Part shown: positions 24,194 through 35,310 of the stretch, one piece after another
Numbering within the stretch: position 1 is the stretch's first letter
Layout: the number at the start of each line of letters is the position of its first letter
DNA from: an uncultured Nitrososphaeraceae archaeon
GTDB taxonomy: Archaea > Thermoproteota > Nitrososphaeria > Nitrososphaerales > Nitrososphaeraceae
Length of the DNA: 64,000 nt
Direction of reading: 5' to 3'
Assembly: GCA_963779615.1 (NCBI GenBank)
Contig: CAVZZA010000003.1
Location: forward strand, 53,237-117,236
The notes under the pieces: model-generated
What the model was told of the DNA's origin: nothing
Database searches by the model: none
What the model saw: the letters and a program-made list of their open reading frames with translations, nothing else
Made by a program: the position numbers and the translations under genes

Positions 24194-25137
24194 TGGACCC
24201 TATACCAAAACTATCATTCTATAAACAGTTATCCCCAGGAGAACGGTACTAACTCAAGATAGTTTTCCATCTTTTCATATCATTTGAATATCTTTCTAAA
24301 CCTGTTGTGCCATGAGTTGGTTCTCTCCACAACCCATGTTCTTGCAGGATGTTCTTTGCGATTTGAGGTTTTTTCTTTTCCGTATCTTTCTTGACCTCTC
24401 TTTTTTTTCTCCTGTACGGTAAATGTAGCACATATCCTCGTTTTGCAATTGCTTGTTCTTCGGGCTTGGACTATATGCTTTATCAAGACAAGGGTGTTGC
24501 AGTTTTCTTTTTCTTCCCGTCTTTGTTTTAGCATATGGAATACATCTTTAGCAACCGCATTATCCACTACATCTGTTACTAATTTAACATCATTCATACT
24601 TGCAGATGACATGACAGCTGAGAGCGGGATACCTTCCTTATCTGTTAAAACATGCTTATTTGTGCCCAGCTTGCCTCTGTCGGCGGGATTGCTTCCAGTC
24701 ATCTCCCCCCCCTAAATGCGACTTTATGGATACGCTGTCAGGTGAGCACCAGGTCCACTTGATGCCCACTAGATTGTCATAGATTTTTAGCACCCTTATC
24801 CATATTTTCCTAAAGATGTCAAGTTTAATCCATTCCTGAAATCGCCTATGGCATGTCGAACCAGATCCATTTCCAGGATGGAACACCTTCCATCGGCATC
24901 CTGTTCTTAGAATGTATAGGACACCAGCAAGTACTTTTTTAAATGGTATGATTGGACGACCAACAGTTTTAGATTGTTTCTCTTTGGGTCAAACGATTCT
25001 AAAATTATCCCACAATTCATCTGAAATCTTGCATATAGTGCAAATATCCTTTTTATCCTCCTCCTTCTGGATGCAGGCCCCACGTTGGCAGTGATGATAA
25101 CAAGCTATACTTCTATCGAATTTTGGGATAGGCTCTA
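24194..25137 (-). mobile_element. Decayed IS5-family element (IS427/IS1031-like)
   Basis: Transposase fragments (HRRFQEW, LGG-EMTGSNPADRGKLG, WVVERTNSW). Ends tggaccctataccaaaa / ttttgggataggctcta form a 14/17 inverted repeat. Confidence 0.85.
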
Positions 25138-28442: not shown

Positions 28443-29951
28443 ATGCAGGTAGGAAAAATCTACAGAAATTCCTCATTAGACATAACAAATGAATTAGAAA
28501 AGGCCGAAATAAAGTGGGTAAGACTAAATTTTTGCGATCCTTTGGGTTATCTTCATCAAATTTCTGTCAACAGCAAGGAGATTACAGAGGATGCATTTAA
28601 GCAAGGACTACCAAGGCTCGATGGCAGCTCCATAAAAGGATTTAAGGAGATCTATGAGTCAGATATGCTGCTCAAACCCGACCCTTCCACTTTTGCCATA
28701 TTGCCAGACTATTTTGACAAAAATCACCATCAGACTAGGGACTGCACATATCCTTCAATGGCGGCACGCATGTTTGTCGATATTTATGAGGGATTCGGTG
28801 GAAAAAGGTATTCTAGGGATAGCAGATATATCGCACAAAAAGCCGAAGAGGTATTGAATGACAAAGGCTTTGAGAAGAGTTATTGGGGGCCCGAGTTGGA
28901 ATTTTTTGTTTTCAACAAAATTACTCTCCTACCAAATCCCATGTCCTCCGTAAATTGTTCTGGTGGGTCGGGATACTCTATTGAATCCTCCGAGGCACCG
29001 TGGAACTCCTCCAATGACAGTGGGTACACCATTCCATTTAAGGGAGGCTACTTTCCTGCTCCCCCAGCAGACAGTTTGACAGATTTAAGAGATGAAGTTT
29101 CGGAAACTTTGCAAGAGTTTTTTGGAATAAGAGTTGATGCCCATCACCACGAGGTCGCGACAGCCGGACAATGTGAGATTCAGATGGTATATGATGAGCT
29201 TACACACATGGCAGACAACGTAATTACCTACAAGAAGACAGTAAAGGAAGTCGCGGCCAAACGCCATATGATTGCAAATTTTATGCCAAAACCAATAGCG
29301 CTTGATAATGGTTCTGGTATGCATGTGAGCCAGAGCTTGTGGACAAAAAGGAAGCATGGAAATGACATGAATGTGTTCTTTGATATTTCCGACGAATACG
29401 CAGAGCTAAGCCAAACCGCCCATTACTATATTGGAGGATTAATAGAGCATGCAAGGTCGCTTTGCGCTATAACAAACCCCACAACCAATTCCTACAGGAG
29501 ATTAGTCCCTGGGTATGAAGCCCCAATAAATGTGGCATGGAGTAAAATGAATAGATCGGCCAGTATAAGAATTCCTGCCCACTTCAAAAACATGGAGAGG
29601 CAGAAAAGAATAGAGTACAGAACACCTGATCCAAGTTCAAACATCTACCTTGTGGAGGCTGCGTTGTTGTTGGCAGGTCTTGATGGGATAAACAAAAAAA
29701 TTTCGCCACCAGACCACATAGATAAGGACATTTACAAACTTACAGAACAACAAAAAAGAGAAGGAGGAATCAAGAAATTACCCACTTCATTATTGGACGC
29801 TATTGAGTCTTTGGAATCAGACAATGAGTTTTTGAAGCCAGTTTTTACAAATGACTTCCTTGAAACATACTTCCAGATCAGAAAAGATGAGTATACAGCA
29901 GTTGCAGCAGTTCCCTCACCGAGAGAATTTTATATGTACGGGAATATCTAG
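28443..29951 (+). CDS. glnA: Glutamine synthetase type I
   Basis: DGSSI, GPELEFF, KGGYF, HHHEVAT, FMPKP..NGSGMH, RLVPGYEAP, NRSASIRIP, RIEYRTPDP. Confidence 0.97.
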   Translation: MQVGKIYRNSSLDITNELEKAEIKWVRLNFCDPLGYLHQISVNSKEITEDAFKQGLPRLDGSSIKGFKEIYESDMLLKPDPSTFAILPDYFDKNHHQTRDCTYPSMAARMFVDIYEGFGGKRYSRDSRYIAQKAEEVLNDKGFEKSYWGPELEFFVFNKITLLPNPMSSVNCSGGSGYSIESSEAPWNSSNDSGYTIPFKGGYFPAPPADSLTDLRDEVSETLQEFFGIRVDAHHHEVATAGQCEIQMVYDELTHMADNVITYKKTVKEVAAKRHMIANFMPKPIALDNGSGMHVSQSLWTKRKHGNDMNVFFDISDEYAELSQTAHYYIGGLIEHARSLCAITNPTTNSYRRLVPGYEAPINVAWSKMNRSASIRIPAHFKNMERQKRIEYRTPDPSSNIYLVEAALLLAGLDGINKKISPPDHIDKDIYKLTEQQKREGGIKKLPTSLLDAIESLESDNEFLKPVFTNDFLETYFQIRKDEYTAVAAVPSPREFYMYGNI

Positions 29952-30559
29952 TTAAAGACATGTCGTATCCTAAAGATGTATTGGAGACTAAAGGAAACCT
30001 TCTGAAGGAATCTTCTGCTTCTTCTTATTCTCCTATTCTAACAGACAATATTTCGAATTCTCATTATTATGACAAGACAAAGATAATCCTAGACGCAAGA
30101 AAAGCATTTGATGGGCTTATCCCATATTCAGGATTAGGCGCCAATTCAACGAATGATTATTTTTCATCTATTGATTTTATTGGCGGTGGAAAACTTAAAG
30201 CAGATGAAGACTACAGCGATGTGGATCTATCAGTAACGATTGAGAGCGTTATTTATATGTATGGGAATGTCTAGTTAAAGATATGTCGTATCCTAAAGAT
30301 GTATTGGAGATTAAAAGAAACCTTCTGAAGGAATCTTCTGCTTCTTCTAGTAGTATTTTAGATAATATTTCGAATTCTCATTATTATGACAAGACAAAGA
30401 TAATCCTAGACGCAAGAAAAGCATTTGATGGGCTTATCCCATATTCAGGATTAGGCGCCAATTCAACGAATGATTATTTTTCATCTATTGATTTTATTGG
30501 CGGTGGAAAACTTAAAGCAGATGAAGACTACAGCGATGTGGATCTATCATTAACGATTG
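29921..30559 (+). repeat. Imperfect ~320-bp tandem duplication across the glnA / glutamate synthase junction
   Basis: Unit 1 ~29921-30242, unit 2 ~30242-30559. 30047-30232 and 30364-30549 read as identical; the 5' parts differ by several substitutions and small indels. Confidence 0.95.
29960..30274 (+). CDS. Chimeric 104-aa ORF: N-terminus of the GOGAT FMN subunit fused to a copy of the GlnA C-terminal tail
   Basis: First ~94 aa nearly equal the start of 30283..31752; ends IYMYGNV* versus GlnA FYMYGNI*. Confidence 0.55.
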   Translation: MSYPKDVLETKGNLLKESSASSYSPILTDNISNSHYYDKTKIILDARKAFDGLIPYSGLGANSTNDYFSSIDFIGGGKLKADEDYSDVDLSVTIESVIYMYGNV

Positions 30560-31752
30560 GAGGACGTTACTCAAATAATGTTATAACATCAGACATACCA
30601 TTTTTTGTTTCTGGTATGAGCTATGGTTCATTGAAGCTTCCTGCAAAAATAGCATTGCACATAGCATTAAACAAACTTGCTATTGAAGATGGGATAAGAG
30701 TAATAATGAATACTGGTGAAGGTGGAGCATTGCCATGGGAAATCTATGGCTCGGATACTAAAAATAATAGTATAATGGAATATGCTGAAAGGCTGCTTAG
30801 GGAGCACAATTTAGACAGTATAGATAGAGAACAACTTTTCCAAAGGCATTATCCTTTGGTAGTTCAATATGCGTCAGGCAGATTTTGGAGAGACCCTAAC
30901 TACTTGTTGATACCGGATGCGATAGAAATCAAGATAGGTCAGGGTGCAAAAATAGGACATGGAGGAATGTTACCAGGTTCAAAGGTAACGGAGCTCGTAG
31001 CTGAGAATCGTGGAATACCTCCTTATAGATCAGCTTACTCGCCTTCAAGACATTTAGATATCTTGGGGCCTGAGGATTTGGTTGCCAAGATCCTTGAATT
31101 AAGAGAACTCACTGATTGGAAGGTTCCAATAATTGTAAAGGTAGGGGCTTCAAGAGCTTATGATGACATTCAGATAATACTCAAATCTTATGCAGATTCT
31201 GCTGCCATAGATGGAATTGTGGGAGGTACTGGTGCGGCTCCATGGGAGATTCGAGATATTGTTGGAATAAATACAATACCTTCGATAAGGTTGGGAAAAA
31301 ATGCAATAAATGATTATTATTTGAATAACGAGACAAATGAGTTTAAACTACTCGCCCATGGTGGTATTTGGGATTCGAAACGAATTGCAAAATGCATTGC
31401 TCTTGGAGCAAATGGAGTAGGCATAGGTACAGGGTTTCTCATATCAATGGGGTGTACATTGATTCAAGACTGTTATACTAATACTTGTCCTGCAGGCTTA
31501 ACCGGCTCATTTGAAAAGCTTGATATAGAATTCAGTGTAAAGAGAATAATCAATTACATTAAGGGAACAATGATCGAACTGCAAAATATTGTAGGTTCAT
31601 TAGGGAAGAAAAGAATCAAAGACCTTGGCCGAGAGGATCTTATTGCTACTGATGAAATATCAAGCATAGTATCGGGACTCTATAACAATAAGAATGTAAA
31701 GGCAGAGGATCATAGAATGTATGGAAAAAAAATTGCTGAGTTAAAAAATTGA
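30283..31752 (+). CDS. gltB: Glutamate synthase, FMN-binding subunit (archaeal split GOGAT)
   Basis: SGMSYGS, NTGEGG, QYASGRF, EIKIGQGAKIGHGGMLPG, DGIVGGTGAA, and the [3Fe-4S] motif CTLIQDCYTNTCP. Confidence 0.9.
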   Translation: MSYPKDVLEIKRNLLKESSASSSSILDNISNSHYYDKTKIILDARKAFDGLIPYSGLGANSTNDYFSSIDFIGGGKLKADEDYSDVDLSLTIGGRYSNNVITSDIPFFVSGMSYGSLKLPAKIALHIALNKLAIEDGIRVIMNTGEGGALPWEIYGSDTKNNSIMEYAERLLREHNLDSIDREQLFQRHYPLVVQYASGRFWRDPNYLLIPDAIEIKIGQGAKIGHGGMLPGSKVTELVAENRGIPPYRSAYSPSRHLDILGPEDLVAKILELRELTDWKVPIIVKVGASRAYDDIQIILKSYADSAAIDGIVGGTGAAPWEIRDIVGINTIPSIRLGKNAINDYYLNNETNEFKLLAHGGIWDSKRIAKCIALGANGVGIGTGFLISMGCTLIQDCYTNTCPAGLTGSFEKLDIEFSVKRIINYIKGTMIELQNIVGSLGKKRIKDLGREDLIATDEISSIVSGLYNNKNVKAEDHRMYGKKIAELKN

Positions 31753-32909
31753 ATCCCAAAGAGAAATTTATTATAAGGTCTTCGATCCTAGAATTAGCAG
31801 AAACTGGTACTCCTCGCAGTATTTCAATAGATGAAAAAATAAGAATGGATCACAAAGAAAGAGGAAATGAAAATACAACAACAAACATCTGGGATTGCAT
31901 AACTGCGTTGGGTGCACAATTATCAAGGCCCCCCTATGATCCATATCGGGAGATAATAAATCTTGGAATATCTGTAGGCAGAAGACAATGTCCAACTAAG
32001 GTTATTTTATCTATGCCCCTGATGATTTATGATAACGATAGGAAGATAGAAGAAGCGCCTTTGGAGGCTCTACATGTTGCATTGAATTGGCTTGCTGTTA
32101 ATGACAATATAAATTTAGGATTGGTTTCAGAAAATAGAGTAAACAATAGTAGAAAGTACCCACATTTTAAACGAATAAGCGAAAGATCAATAGGGGAGGA
32201 GGATTATGATTCTGAAGGACTTGTATTACAATACAACAGTGGCAAATCCCTACAATTTCTAACAGAGATGAGGAAAGAATTCAGCGGCCCAATTCTTGTA
32301 GAGATTGATGATGATTTTGAGAGATACATTGGATCATTGCTGGATGCAGGAGCTGATGGAATTATTGCAGATACTGTTAAAATAACAAACAAAGAGAGGT
32401 ACCAAGGAAAACATGCAGTAACAGTAATACACAAGGTACGATGCGCTATAAACCAATACTATGCTGGAAAAGAAAATGATGGTACGTTATTAATGGTTGC
32501 AGGGGACTTGAATAATACAGGCAGAATTGTAAAAGCTGCTGCATTGGGTGCGGATATTATTGGATACTCCACCAGTTTGTTGATTGCAAATGCTGCAATT
32601 CATCATGATAACCCATCCAACATAAATGCAATATCAGAAAGGATCTGTAGACACATTCAGGCCACCAAAGGAGAACTTAAAGGAGTACCTGCCGCATTAG
32701 GATACAGTAATTTCTATAACATATCACCTGCGGATTTGCGTACCTCTAGTATCGAGGCAAGTTTACAGGCGGATATTGCCATAGAAGGAGTGGATAAAAC
32801 TTATCGCCAAATAATTGAGGAATCGACAGGTGAACATGCCATAGAAGAAGGAATGGAAATTGATAAAGATAAAAATCAGAAACTTAGTTGCATATCTATT
32901 GATAAATAG
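31749..32909 (+). CDS. Degenerate paralogue of the glutamate synthase FMN-binding subunit
   Basis: GAQLSRPPYDPYRE, AGADGII and VKAAALGAD match the GltB-FMN barrel; GEGG, GQGAK, GGTG and the three-Cys cluster motif are absent. Overlaps the upstream stop (TTGA). Confidence 0.7.
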   Translation: MNPKEKFIIRSSILELAETGTPRSISIDEKIRMDHKERGNENTTTNIWDCITALGAQLSRPPYDPYREIINLGISVGRRQCPTKVILSMPLMIYDNDRKIEEAPLEALHVALNWLAVNDNINLGLVSENRVNNSRKYPHFKRISERSIGEEDYDSEGLVLQYNSGKSLQFLTEMRKEFSGPILVEIDDDFERYIGSLLDAGADGIIADTVKITNKERYQGKHAVTVIHKVRCAINQYYAGKENDGTLLMVAGDLNNTGRIVKAAALGADIIGYSTSLLIANAAIHHDNPSNINAISERICRHIQATKGELKGVPAALGYSNFYNISPADLRTSSIEASLQADIAIEGVDKTYRQIIEESTGEHAIEEGMEIDKDKNQKLSCISIDK

Positions 32910-32931
32910 TTAAGGAGGGGACGGAAGGAAC

Positions 32932-33789
32932 ATGTGTGGCATTTGCGGAATTATATTAAAAGATCACAATCCAAACTTTTCAATCGGTGCTCTGCTTTAT
33001 CAGATGATGGAAGGCCAGCAGGTAAGAGCTCAAGATAGTGCAGGCATAGCCATTTTTAATAATGGAAATAGAGGTAATAACGATTCACTATATAATCTTA
33101 CCTACCTTATGAAATCTCCTACTGGATACGAGTTGAGAGAAGAAAAAAGGCCTTTAAATGAACAAGATCGACGTGCTTCCAGATTAATCAAGGATGATCG
33201 GGTTTCTATAATAGGTTGTTCAAAAGAAATGAAGTTGGTCAAAGATGTAGGCCTTGTAAGAGATCTTGATAAAAAATATGATATAAAATCAATGCAAGGA
33301 TCTCACGGTATTGGACATTTAAGAATAGCAACGAGCAGTAGAGTTGACATGCATAATGCCCATCCATTCAGTACTACAGTCATGCCCGATATAGCAGTTG
33401 TGCATAATGGAGAAATCACAAATTATTCCAAATTAAAGAATTCGCTTGAGATTCAAGGATACCCTTTCTATTCTAATTGTGATTCAGAGGTCATAGCTGT
33501 TTTTCTTGCTGACCAGTTGTTAAAGCATGGAGACATAGAAAGGGCACATAATGAATTTATTCAAAAAGCCGATGGGCCATTTACCTATATTGCTGCTACA
33601 AATCATTCATTATCATTGATAAGGGATAGATTTGGAACAAGAAAGGGGATTGTAGGATACAATCCAGGAGGAGAGGGCCATCCTGCATTCTGGGCAATGG
33701 CAACGGATCTATCTGCATTAGATATTGTCGGAGCTAACGAAGATGTGAAAGCAGCGTCACCAGGCAAATCACTAATTTTCACAGTATAA
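32932..33789 (+). CDS. Glutamate synthase, class II glutamine amidotransferase subunit
   Basis: N-terminal nucleophile MCGICG, R-x-QDSAG, GHLRIAT, HPF, HNGEITNY, DSEVI; ggaggg SD upstream. Confidence 0.9.
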   Translation: MCGICGIILKDHNPNFSIGALLYQMMEGQQVRAQDSAGIAIFNNGNRGNNDSLYNLTYLMKSPTGYELREEKRPLNEQDRRASRLIKDDRVSIIGCSKEMKLVKDVGLVRDLDKKYDIKSMQGSHGIGHLRIATSSRVDMHNAHPFSTTVMPDIAVVHNGEITNYSKLKNSLEIQGYPFYSNCDSEVIAVFLADQLLKHGDIERAHNEFIQKADGPFTYIAATNHSLSLIRDRFGTRKGIVGYNPGGEGHPAFWAMATDLSALDIVGANEDVKAASPGKSLIFTV

Positions 33790-33829
33790 TAAATAAATTA
33801 ATAAAGCCATATCTAAAAAACAAAGACAA

Positions 33830-34759
33830 ATGTGTTATACGTTAGATATCGATGAATTACGAGCAATAGTAAAGGACATAGGCTCAAAGGTATCTAATCC
33901 AGATGCACAATTTGAAAGTGTCAACAACGCTTTTGAGAAGAATTTTGGAACAAAACTTCCTTATGGATTAAAACGCGCATCTATAGAAAAATTTGGGGAT
34001 GTTGCAAGTTCTCCCCTAATAATGGAAAGGGCAATTAACTCCATAATAAAAAAAAAGGTGGCAGCGGGTGAAACTAAAATCATACTAAAAAATCCAAAAG
34101 CCCTTTACAGAATAGGGATACTTGGTTATGATGAGACTATAAAATTAGACATGACAGTGGAAGGAAATGTTGGCAATTTTTTTGGCGCATTTTGCAACTT
34201 TGATGGAACCTGGATAGTTAATGGAAACGCCGAGAATGGATTGGCGGACAAGGGGTACAAAGGAAAAATAATTGTGGAAGGGTTTGCCACAGAACTTGCA
34301 TGCCAAAACAATCAAGCAACCAAATTCAGTAATGGTGTCGATCTCTTGATTAAAAAAGGGTGTATGGAGAGAGCTATGGGTCAAGCCAGGGGAGGAAGGT
34401 TGGTAACTTTTGGCGCAGGATACAATTCTGGTCTGTACATGTCAGGGGGAGTATTGCTTAATTTGGGCCTACCGGGAGAACTGTTTGGCCCTGGAATGGT
34501 TGGTGGCGTTATTTATTCTCCTGAAGGAACTACTGCAGCAGACGGTGCGGTTATCAATAAATTAAAGGTGGAAGATTATTCAATTATTAAAGAAACACTA
34601 CGGGTATTTGAAAATGAGTTACGGATAGAGCAACTAGATAATTTATCCATGGAAAACCCGACAGTGTATTTAACCAACAATGTTATTAAAGATAATCAAA
34701 AGTATAACATAAGTGACTTTATCAAAATAGTCCCAAATATAACCAATTCTCATAACTAG
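33830..34759 (+). CDS. Glutamate synthase, GXGXG (beta-helix) subunit
   Basis: GNVGNFFGAF, GNAENGLAD, GQARGG, GAGYNSGLYMSGG, GPGMVGG repeats. Confidence 0.85.
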   Translation: MCYTLDIDELRAIVKDIGSKVSNPDAQFESVNNAFEKNFGTKLPYGLKRASIEKFGDVASSPLIMERAINSIIKKKVAAGETKIILKNPKALYRIGILGYDETIKLDMTVEGNVGNFFGAFCNFDGTWIVNGNAENGLADKGYKGKIIVEGFATELACQNNQATKFSNGVDLLIKKGCMERAMGQARGGRLVTFGAGYNSGLYMSGGVLLNLGLPGELFGPGMVGGVIYSPEGTTAADGAVINKLKVEDYSIIKETLRVFENELRIEQLDNLSMENPTVYLTNNVIKDNQKYNISDFIKIVPNITNSHN

Positions 34760-34871: not shown

Positions 34872-35310
34872 TCATAACAGCCGAAAATCCTCTTTCACAG
34901 TAATCAAAACTATATGTGTATTGGTTCTGTCAACATATGGTAACGATAGGTCCCTCTTGACAAAGTCACTTAATTCCCTTCGATTCCTAAATTTAGCAAC
35001 TATTATCATATCCGTCAATCCAGTGATATCATAAACTGCACAAACATTTGGGAGCTTTGAAATGTGTTTCTCAACATCGTTTATTTTATTTTTGATTGCA
35101 GTTATTTCAATTACCGCCGTCAAATCAAATCCTAACTTTACATGGTCCACTATTGCAGAATAAGATTTTATGATATTGTCTTTTTCCAATCTTGATATCC
35201 TGTTAAGTACCTGTGGGTGGAGAGACCCCTATTTCAAATGCTATTTTTCGGTAAGAACTCCTAGCATCTGCCAATAGCCTTTTTAATATCTTTGTGTCTG
35301 TCTCATCCAT
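34872..35310 (-). pseudogene. Lrp/AsnC-family transcriptional regulator with a +1 frameshift in the HTH
   Basis: From ATG at 35310: MDETDTKILKRLLADARSSYRKIAFEIGVSPPT; an extra G at ~35210-35211 precedes VLNRISRLEKDNIIKSY...; RAM domain intact (track ORF 34872..35189). Confidence 0.85.

Follow-up and report, generated by a model that had tools for sequence, protein, structure and literature searches.

Does an ammonia-oxidising archaeon (AOA) possess its own pathway of glutamine synthetase (GS) and glutamate synthase (GOGAT), and what kind of enzyme would its glutamate synthase be? The question is raised by a cluster in a stretch of 64,000 nucleotides from an uncultured Nitrososphaeraceae archaeon (the window; contig CAVZZA010000003.1, G000:C3:53237-117236 in our numbering), in which a glnA gene (glnA3) is followed by four genes of glutamate synthase type, here called P3, P4, P5 and P6. 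Through GS-GOGAT, ammonium is assimilated with high affinity and at the expense of ATP, and in AOA assimilation competes with the cell's own ammonia monooxygenase for substrate; most AOA are thought to use glutamate dehydrogenase (GDH) only. An earlier annotation of this DNA, made from the letters and their reading frames and referred to below as the original prediction, stated that descriptions of AOA mostly list GS and GDH but no GOGAT, and the literature agrees (PMC6657660, PMC10432482, PMC7554672). The genome from which the window was taken comprises 3.17 Mb in 5 contigs, with about 35% G+C and a completeness of 92.5%. It contains an archaeal amoA (390 bits), and close homologues of its genes bear the name Candidatus Nitrosocosmicus, so that what was first called an apparent ammonia oxidiser is an AOA of the Nitrosocosmicus genus. 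The genome also encodes a GDH (275 bits) and, elsewhere, two further glnA genes besides glnA3.

Glutamine synthetase and the four glutamate synthase-type genes

The evidence makes it probable that the cluster is a conserved nitrogen-assimilation module of some AOA, in which a dedicated type I GS, encoded by glnA3, would work together with a glutamate synthase in which the four domains of GltB are divided among four proteins. The block holds six open reading frames (ORFs), one of which, of 104 aa, had not been mentioned before, and the gaps between them are, in order, 8, 8, -4, 22 and 40 bp, which agrees with the range of -4 to 40 bp given in the original prediction. The stop codon of P3 and the TTG start of P4 share 4 nt (TTGA), an overlap that points to translational coupling of the two genes. 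The earlier count of four glutamate synthase-type genes also holds, P3, P5 and P6 being assigned by their family matches and P4 as a collinear paralogue of P3 with 27% identity.

The glnA3 product scored 530 bits against TIGR00653 (equivalog cut-off 429), and its best matches in the Protein Data Bank (PDB) were to type I enzymes (GS-I, 359 bits), compared with 116-125 bits for GmaS/type III enzymes (glutamate-methylamine ligase). As the ammonium-site segment LDGSSI (Asp/Ser) and the Glu flap GYEAP were both found to be kept when the sequence was aligned to 4S17, the GS of the module reads as a canonical type I GlnA with a predicted intact ammonium site. Moreover, glnA3 is a third glnA paralogue that is specific to the module. 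Its orthologues, at 75% identity or more, were found in exactly those 12 of 81 Nitrososphaeraceae genomes in which the module is present (with a bound of 72%, too, they are confined to module-bearing genomes), and the module-free genomes of the family have only a 'housekeeping' glnA paralogue of 49-53% identity, often together with one of 42-45%. One genome of a sister genus (G348) contains two glnA3 copies with equal scores (G348:C6:198712-200187 and G348:C8:491123-492598), which suggests a duplication, in that genome, of the module as a whole or of its GS.

P3 matched PF01645 (Glu_synthase) with 270 bits. In alignments to the GltB of A. brasilense and the ferredoxin-dependent glutamate synthase (Fd-GltS) of Synechocystis, it retains QGAK, the 2-oxoglutarate-site Arg ('AENR') and GGTGA, and its [3Fe-4S]-type ligand motif C-x5-C-x4-C-P (C390, C396 and C401-P) is placed exactly as in both reference enzymes. 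A motif table showed these three cysteines to be common to all AOA P3 orthologues and to classical GltBs, and the presence of the cluster in P3 is predicted accordingly; identity to Fd-GltS over the flavin mononucleotide (FMN) domain is only about 30-35%. P5 begins with MCGICG, which provides Cys1, and matched PF13522 and PF13537. Its alignment to PurF and GlmS revealed that Cys1, the Arg of GHLRIAT, the Asn-Gly of HNGE and the Asp of CDSEV are all kept, that is, the full residue set of an N-terminal nucleophile (Ntn) glutaminase, and in sequence it is nearer to PurF/GlmS-type domains than to GATase_2. P6 matched PF01493 (GXGXG) with 45.9 bits and, in the PDB, residues ~1264-1472 of the GltB large chain. 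The Ntn residue set of P5, the QGAK/Arg site and the cysteine motif of P3 and the GXGXG subunit P6 together argue for a multi-subunit GOGAT, as the original prediction had it.

In the mechanism that we propose, GS would form glutamine from glutamate, NH4+ and ATP. P5 would then hydrolyse this glutamine by means of its catalytic Cys1, and the ammonia released would be handed to P3, where 2-oxoglutarate would be aminated and the resulting 2-iminoglutarate reduced by FMN. Electrons would reach the FMN via the [3Fe-4S] cluster. P4, a putative dead barrel with a central-domain motif, and P6, a putative GXGXG beta-helix, would serve as a non-catalytic scaffold in a complex of the four proteins.

Coordinates of the features of the locus, as positions in the window
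Feature	Position	Strand	Size	Remarks
glnA (glnA3)	28443-29951	+	502 aa	
104-aa ORF	29960-30274	+	104 aa	chimeric: head of P3 and GlnA-like YMYGNV tail
P3, glutamate synthase FMN/synthase subunit	30283-31752	+	489 aa	PF01645
P4, cofactor-less P3 paralogue	31749-32909	+	386 aa	TTG start
P5, class-II (Ntn) glutamine amidotransferase subunit	32932-33789	+	285 aa	PF13522, PF13537
P6, GXGXG subunit (like the C-terminal domain of GltB)	33830-34759	+	309 aa	PF01493
Tandem duplication	29929-30568	+		two copies; 3' end of glnA, spacer and 5' end of P3
Lrp/AsnC-family regulator, frameshifted	34872-35310	-		head 35310-~35203; RAM-domain ORF 35189-34872; PF01037

P4 and the proposed domain plan of the enzyme

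P4 gave no Pfam match at default thresholds. Compared with P3, it lacks the whole QGAK substrate loop, GGTGA and the cysteine motif. What is near-invariant across the P4 family is an N-terminal motif, GAQLSRPPYDPYRE, which is followed by a degenerate TIM barrel. The counterpart of this motif in classical GltB is a signature of the central domain, FAQVTNPPIDPIRE (residues ~530-545), the form shared by the two being AQxxxPPxDPxRE. A motif of the P4 type was also found at the N-terminus of MgsC, the FMN subunit of bacterial methylamine use, and of the FMN subunits of three-gene archaeal GOGATs, and it is degenerate in P3.

A P4-family profile matched the GltB central domain in hhalign with Prob 76% and an E value of 2e-5 over 262 columns, a weak match between shallow alignments, compared with a Prob of 15% against the FMN domain. 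Among 22 members of the family, weak matches to PF04898, the central domain, were detected in 6 and weak matches to PF01645 in 15. The AlphaFold 2 model of P4 shows a TIM barrel like those of FMN oxidoreductases and IMPDH, with a mean predicted local distance difference test (pLDDT) score of 69.7. The top 50 Foldseek hits of this model were generic barrels of that kind, at template modelling (TM) scores of 0.4-0.5, and no specific glutamate synthase (GltS) was among them, so that the model backs the fold class of P4 and leaves its assignment to the central domain undecided. A sequence search of the PDB with P4 returned chance-level matches only. The family is narrow, with 72 matches in 1.84 billion representative proteins and about ten full-length clusters.

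In Pfam the GltB central domain is described as 'a rudimentary form of the FMN-binding TIM barrel', which is the same anatomy as that of P4. We propose that P4 is a candidate free-standing equivalent of the GltB central domain, arisen either by orthology or by an independent duplication, and that the enzyme is a complete four-piece GltS with P5 as domain 1, P4 as domain 2, P3 as domain 3 and P6 as domain 4. A wider scheme can be offered only tentatively, and we would not be surprised to see it fail. In it, the four-gene enzyme would be a naturally unfused GltB with P4 as its free-standing central domain and with the central motif and the catalytic barrel divided between P4 and P3; this arrangement would be either a relic of the state before fusion or an independent replay of the central-domain duplication. 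The ferredoxin-type module would have been gained by AOA after the ancestral loss of the three-gene type and then have descended vertically, with many losses, in Nitrososphaeraceae and Nitrosopumilaceae. A GltS made as four separate proteins, one of them a stand-alone subunit resembling the central domain, would suit the dissection of the roles of the central and GXGXG domains.

Electron donor and alternative readings of the module

The original prediction had described the enzyme as probably ferredoxin-dependent and the block as free of genes for an NAD(P)H beta-subunit or a ferredoxin. The ORF content of the block agrees with the latter, and a search of the whole genome (3.17 Mb, 92.5% complete) for Fer4_20/GltD (PF14691) produced no match, the same search being positive in 9 of 14 reference genomes used as controls. 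No Fer4 match was obtained in P3 either, and its N-terminus is devoid of cysteines. P3 and its clade carry an insertion of about 40 residues (P3 residues ~150-190) directly after the GEGG position. An insertion is present at the same alignment position in the Fd-GltS of Synechocystis, and none is found there in NADPH-GltS, in MgsC or in the three-gene archaeal subunits. In Fd-GltS it corresponds to the loop of residues 907-933, for which a part in ferredoxin docking has been proposed; we use this as a lead only. In addition, the cluster motif of P3 has three cysteines, as in Fd-GltS and GltB, in contrast to the four of the three-gene archaeal enzymes. Because there is no GltD in the genome, no Fer4 on P3 and an insertion where Fd-GltS has one, the reductant is most likely ferredoxin, as far as sequence features can tell. 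Among known systems, Fd-GltS itself (Synechocystis 1LLW/1OFD) is one of the closest: it has an Ntn glutaminase, a central domain to which P4 would correspond, an FMN domain with the same C-x5-C-x4-C-P motif and a GXGXG domain, lacks a beta subunit and has the insertion after GEGG. It is a single chain of ~1500 aa, whereas the AOA enzyme is encoded as four polypeptides, in the order FMN, central-like, glutaminase and GXGXG.

Several points weigh against the account given so far. We know of no biochemical evidence for any four-gene split archaeal GOGAT. Ferredoxin dependence is deduced from what is absent and from the site of an insertion with a proposed role in Fd-GltS, and at the completeness of this genome a GltD gene could sit in the missing part. 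The QGAK loop of P3 reads GAKIGHGG where that of GltB reads GAKPGEGG, a difference at two positions. P4, with its weak match to the central domain, resembles the FMN barrel too. Many P3 orthologues (P0121, P0125-P0147 and others) bear the automatic IMG/KEGG label 'methylamine-glutamate N-methyltransferase subunit C' (mgsC). Finally, metatranscriptome contigs from soil and rhizosphere, 95-99% identical to the window, extend over the five genes and across the junctions glnA/P3, P3/P4, P4/P5 and P5/P6, which is consistent with an operon expressed in situ in near-identical relatives, but these contigs are strandless and may include DNA carry-over.

It is unlikely that the GOGAT draws its electrons from NAD(P)H, by way of a reductase partner that has escaped recognition, and not from ferredoxin, although this reading has some points in its favour: the reaction is described as NADPH-dependent in two papers (PMC6657660, PMC10432482), the genome is incomplete, and AOA are aerobic, reduced ferredoxin being no obvious abundant currency for them. 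The failure to find Fer4_20/GltD anywhere in the genome, with a search that worked in most controls, speaks against such a partner, as do the 34 related loci described below, none of which has a reductase or any other gene between the five module genes, and the resemblance of P3 to the ferredoxin enzyme in its three-Cys motif and in the site of its insertion. The wording of the two papers is generic text, without backing from gene content, and on present evidence the enzyme should not be annotated as NADPH-dependent.

It is likewise improbable that the cluster encodes an amidotransferase of the GltS family with another physiological reaction, either one that acts on a different 2-oxo acid or one that turns the glutamine of a specialised GS back into glutamate to dispose of it. 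The existence of a diverged GS within the module, in a genome that already holds two other glnA genes and a GDH, would fit such a role, and so would the two altered positions of the QGAK loop and the membership of P3 in an uncharacterised family whose clade is long-branched in our tree. On the other hand, the Gln, Lys and Arg that bind 2-oxoglutarate (QGAK...R) are conserved in P3, the GS is canonical, and in a relative the cluster lies among ilv biosynthesis genes, which fits the supply of glutamate.

Very little speaks for a system like the N-methylglutamate pathway, in which P5, P6 and P3 would be MgsA, MgsB and MgsC and the GS a gamma-glutamylmethylamide synthetase, all acting on methylamine. 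The reading owes its appeal to the IMG name of many P3 orthologues and to the bacterial MgsABC and GmaS proteins of methylamine use, which comprise three homologous stand-alone subunits (a class-II glutamine amidotransferase, a GXGXG protein and an FMN barrel that, like P3, is devoid of Fer4) encoded beside a GS-family ligase. Our comparison set consisted of the plasmid clusters mgsA-mgsB-mgsC-glnT(type III) of Paracoccus yeei and Rhizobium leguminosarum, the latter located beside genes for dimethylamine monooxygenase. In genuine MgsC the cluster cysteines are missing and 16 extra residues are inserted at that site, whereas P3 has the GltB motif and no such insertion. The identity between P3 and MgsC is just 31-34%, and in a maximum likelihood tree of FMN subunits the AOA P3 proteins formed a clade apart from MgsC on strongly supported branches. 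The bacterial clusters also differ in gene order (A-B-C-ligase) and in the absence of P4, and their ligase is of the type III/GmaS kind, unlike the module GS, which scores above the TIGR00653 cut-off, is far closer to GS-I and keeps the Asp and Ser of the ammonium site. On the cysteine motif, the type of GS and the tree we reject a methylamine pathway as the likely function of the module. The cysteine motif and the tree placement show the mgsC label to be wrong for the AOA P3 clade.

Distribution, history and surroundings of the module

Four GOGAT genes were already reported in 2019 for N. arcticus and N. oleophilus (Alves et al., PMC6657660), a statement repeated in a review (PMC10432482). 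The core claim is therefore not new, and the source genome represents a further species with the published module. Ca. Nitrosocosmicus arcticus Kfb (NARC_80135-80138) and Ca. N. oleophilus MY3 share all five genes, their order and the Lrp neighbour, and identities to them are, respectively, 86/84% for glnA, 80/80% for P3, 69/69% for P4, 76/71% for P5 and 78/79% for P6. The source is a different species or strain, and the duplication of 323 bp and the frameshifted Lrp gene described below are found in it only. The two publications speak of an 'archaeal type' that is NADPH-dependent, and contain no mention of a module-specific glnA, of a cofactor-less subunit or of a spread to other Nitrososphaeraceae genera and to metagenome-assembled genomes (MAGs) of Nitrosopumilaceae. 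What the present analysis adds is the module-specific GS paralogue, the central-domain-like P4, the iron-sulphur argument against mgsC, the absence of an NAD(P)H subunit, the wider distribution and two strain-specific lesions.

A survey of 300 genomes from the class detected close orthologues of P3 in 4 of the 8 other genomes of the genus, in 3 of the 6 genomes from a sister genus and in 1 Nitrosopumilaceae genome. When 185,579 species representatives were scanned for a P4 pattern, 34 loci emerged, every one of them in AOA: Nitrosocosmicus, other Nitrososphaeraceae including TH1177 and TH5894, six Nitrosopumilus/Nitrosopumilaceae MAGs, and NORP47. The order glnA-P3-P4-P5-P6 was kept in these 34 loci and in 8 loci that we fetched, as far as the contigs reach, with glnA being divergently oriented in the Nitrosopumilaceae loci. 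Across the two AOA families the five ORFs are 44-90% identical and their catalytic motifs are kept. The module is therefore lineage-specific, as the original prediction had supposed, given its presence in AOA only and in just 12 of the 81 family genomes; it is patchily distributed and not ubiquitous in AOA, so that the refuting case of ubiquity named in the original prediction does not apply. Its annotation as a property of some Nitrosocosmicus is accordingly too narrow. A dedicated GS and GOGAT with their own regulator would divide soil AOA, and some aquatic ones, into physiologically distinct groups. This division could affect, besides the partition of ammonia between oxidation and assimilation supposed in the original prediction, growth yield, affinity for ammonium in assimilation and nitrogen isotope signatures.

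In the tree of FMN subunits, the AOA clade divides into Nitrosopumilaceae and Nitrososphaeraceae, and its sister is another archaeal clade with the same four-gene architecture. Contigs of this sister lineage (L036:5515-10041 and L038:8001-12693) carry a set of FMN, P4-like, glutaminase and GXGXG genes whose products are 40-45% identical. L036 has its glutaminase and GXGXG parts in a single fused protein (608 aa), and its cluster lies among ilvD, ilvC and ilvE-like genes. A sample of 400 genomes of the phylum contained no further genome of this four-gene kind besides the source genome. Non-AOA Nitrososphaeria have instead the three-gene 'archaeal' GOGAT with Fer4 (L022-L024), made up of a glutaminase, a GXGXG protein and an FMN subunit and encoded beside a glnA of 36% identity. 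This enzyme is also split and often adjoins glnA, and the same chemistry is expected of it. It differs from the P3 type in that its FMN subunit bears a 2x[4Fe-4S] Fer4 domain, the cluster motif C-x2-C-x2-C-x4-C-P and SRPPxDxYRE, in the lack of P4 and in forming a separate clade. The three-gene type is the one inferred to have been lost, and GOGAT with it, at the AOA ancestor (Abby et al., PMC7554672). Taken together, the split of the tree, the distinct three-gene type outside AOA and this ancestral loss suggest a later gain of a different type of GOGAT, followed by vertical descent with many losses, on what is a thin sampling.

Two contigs of the Nitrosopumilaceae genus g10 (L027:6519-7499 and L028:6603-7610) encode stand-alone FMN-binding proteins of the glutamate synthase family (534 aa) with the three-Cys motif, which cluster with a bacterial 'glutamate synthase-related protein' (Monoglobus). 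The ~6 kb around either FMN gene gave no match to a glutaminase, a GXGXG protein or P4. Genes of this type may be behind loose claims of GOGAT in Nitrosopumilaceae.

A repeat search and tblastn revealed a tandem duplication at the junction of glnA and P3, with a period of 323/317 bp and 95% identity between the copies. The duplicated unit includes the first 94 codons of P3 together with the 3' end of glnA and the spacer. The 104-aa ORF is a product of this duplication, has no gene family of its own and sits between two whole genes. None of 8 related AOA loci examined has the junction duplication. A DNA contig of run X1, which may be the source sample, crosses the junction of the copies (position 30252) with 0 mismatches, one of its flanks being only about 18 nt long; this contig and the 5% divergence of the copies make an assembly artefact the less favoured origin, on thin support. 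That the cluster is a decaying or silent relic in the source strain is scarcely credible, because the junction duplication, the frameshifted Lrp neighbour and a transposase fragment nearby, which could be read that way, stand against five whole ORFs conserved over two AOA families with their catalytic motifs, transcription of the module by near-identical relatives in soil and rhizosphere, and a duplication that left both glnA and P3 whole.

Downstream of the operon and convergent with it, a 105-aa ORF matched PF01037. Relatives have an intact Lrp/AsnC protein of ~150 aa. Such a protein can be read from the window only with a shift of frame (+1, one extra base) within the helix-turn-helix region, at about 35205-35212; in the metatranscriptome contig of a relative there is one base fewer at 35210. 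The full-length Lrp of the relatives and the frameshift in the window rule out a stand-alone RAM-domain protein, and the frameshift may be a real pseudogene lesion or an error of sequencing or assembly. Most Nitrososphaeraceae loci have an Lrp/AsnC gene next to the module; in Nitrosocosmicus it follows the operon in convergent orientation, and in other genera it precedes glnA. The adjacent protein is probably the local regulator of the module.

Two minor observations concern the locus and its flank. About 4 kb upstream of the operon, a 140-aa ORF on the minus strand (24280-24702) gave a sub-threshold match to the transposase family DDE_Tnp_1 (21.1 bits, cut-off 23). In metatranscriptome contigs from runs X2 and X6, which derive from close relatives, the C-terminal tail of P3 contains an extra in-frame stretch of 27 nt at window position 31687.

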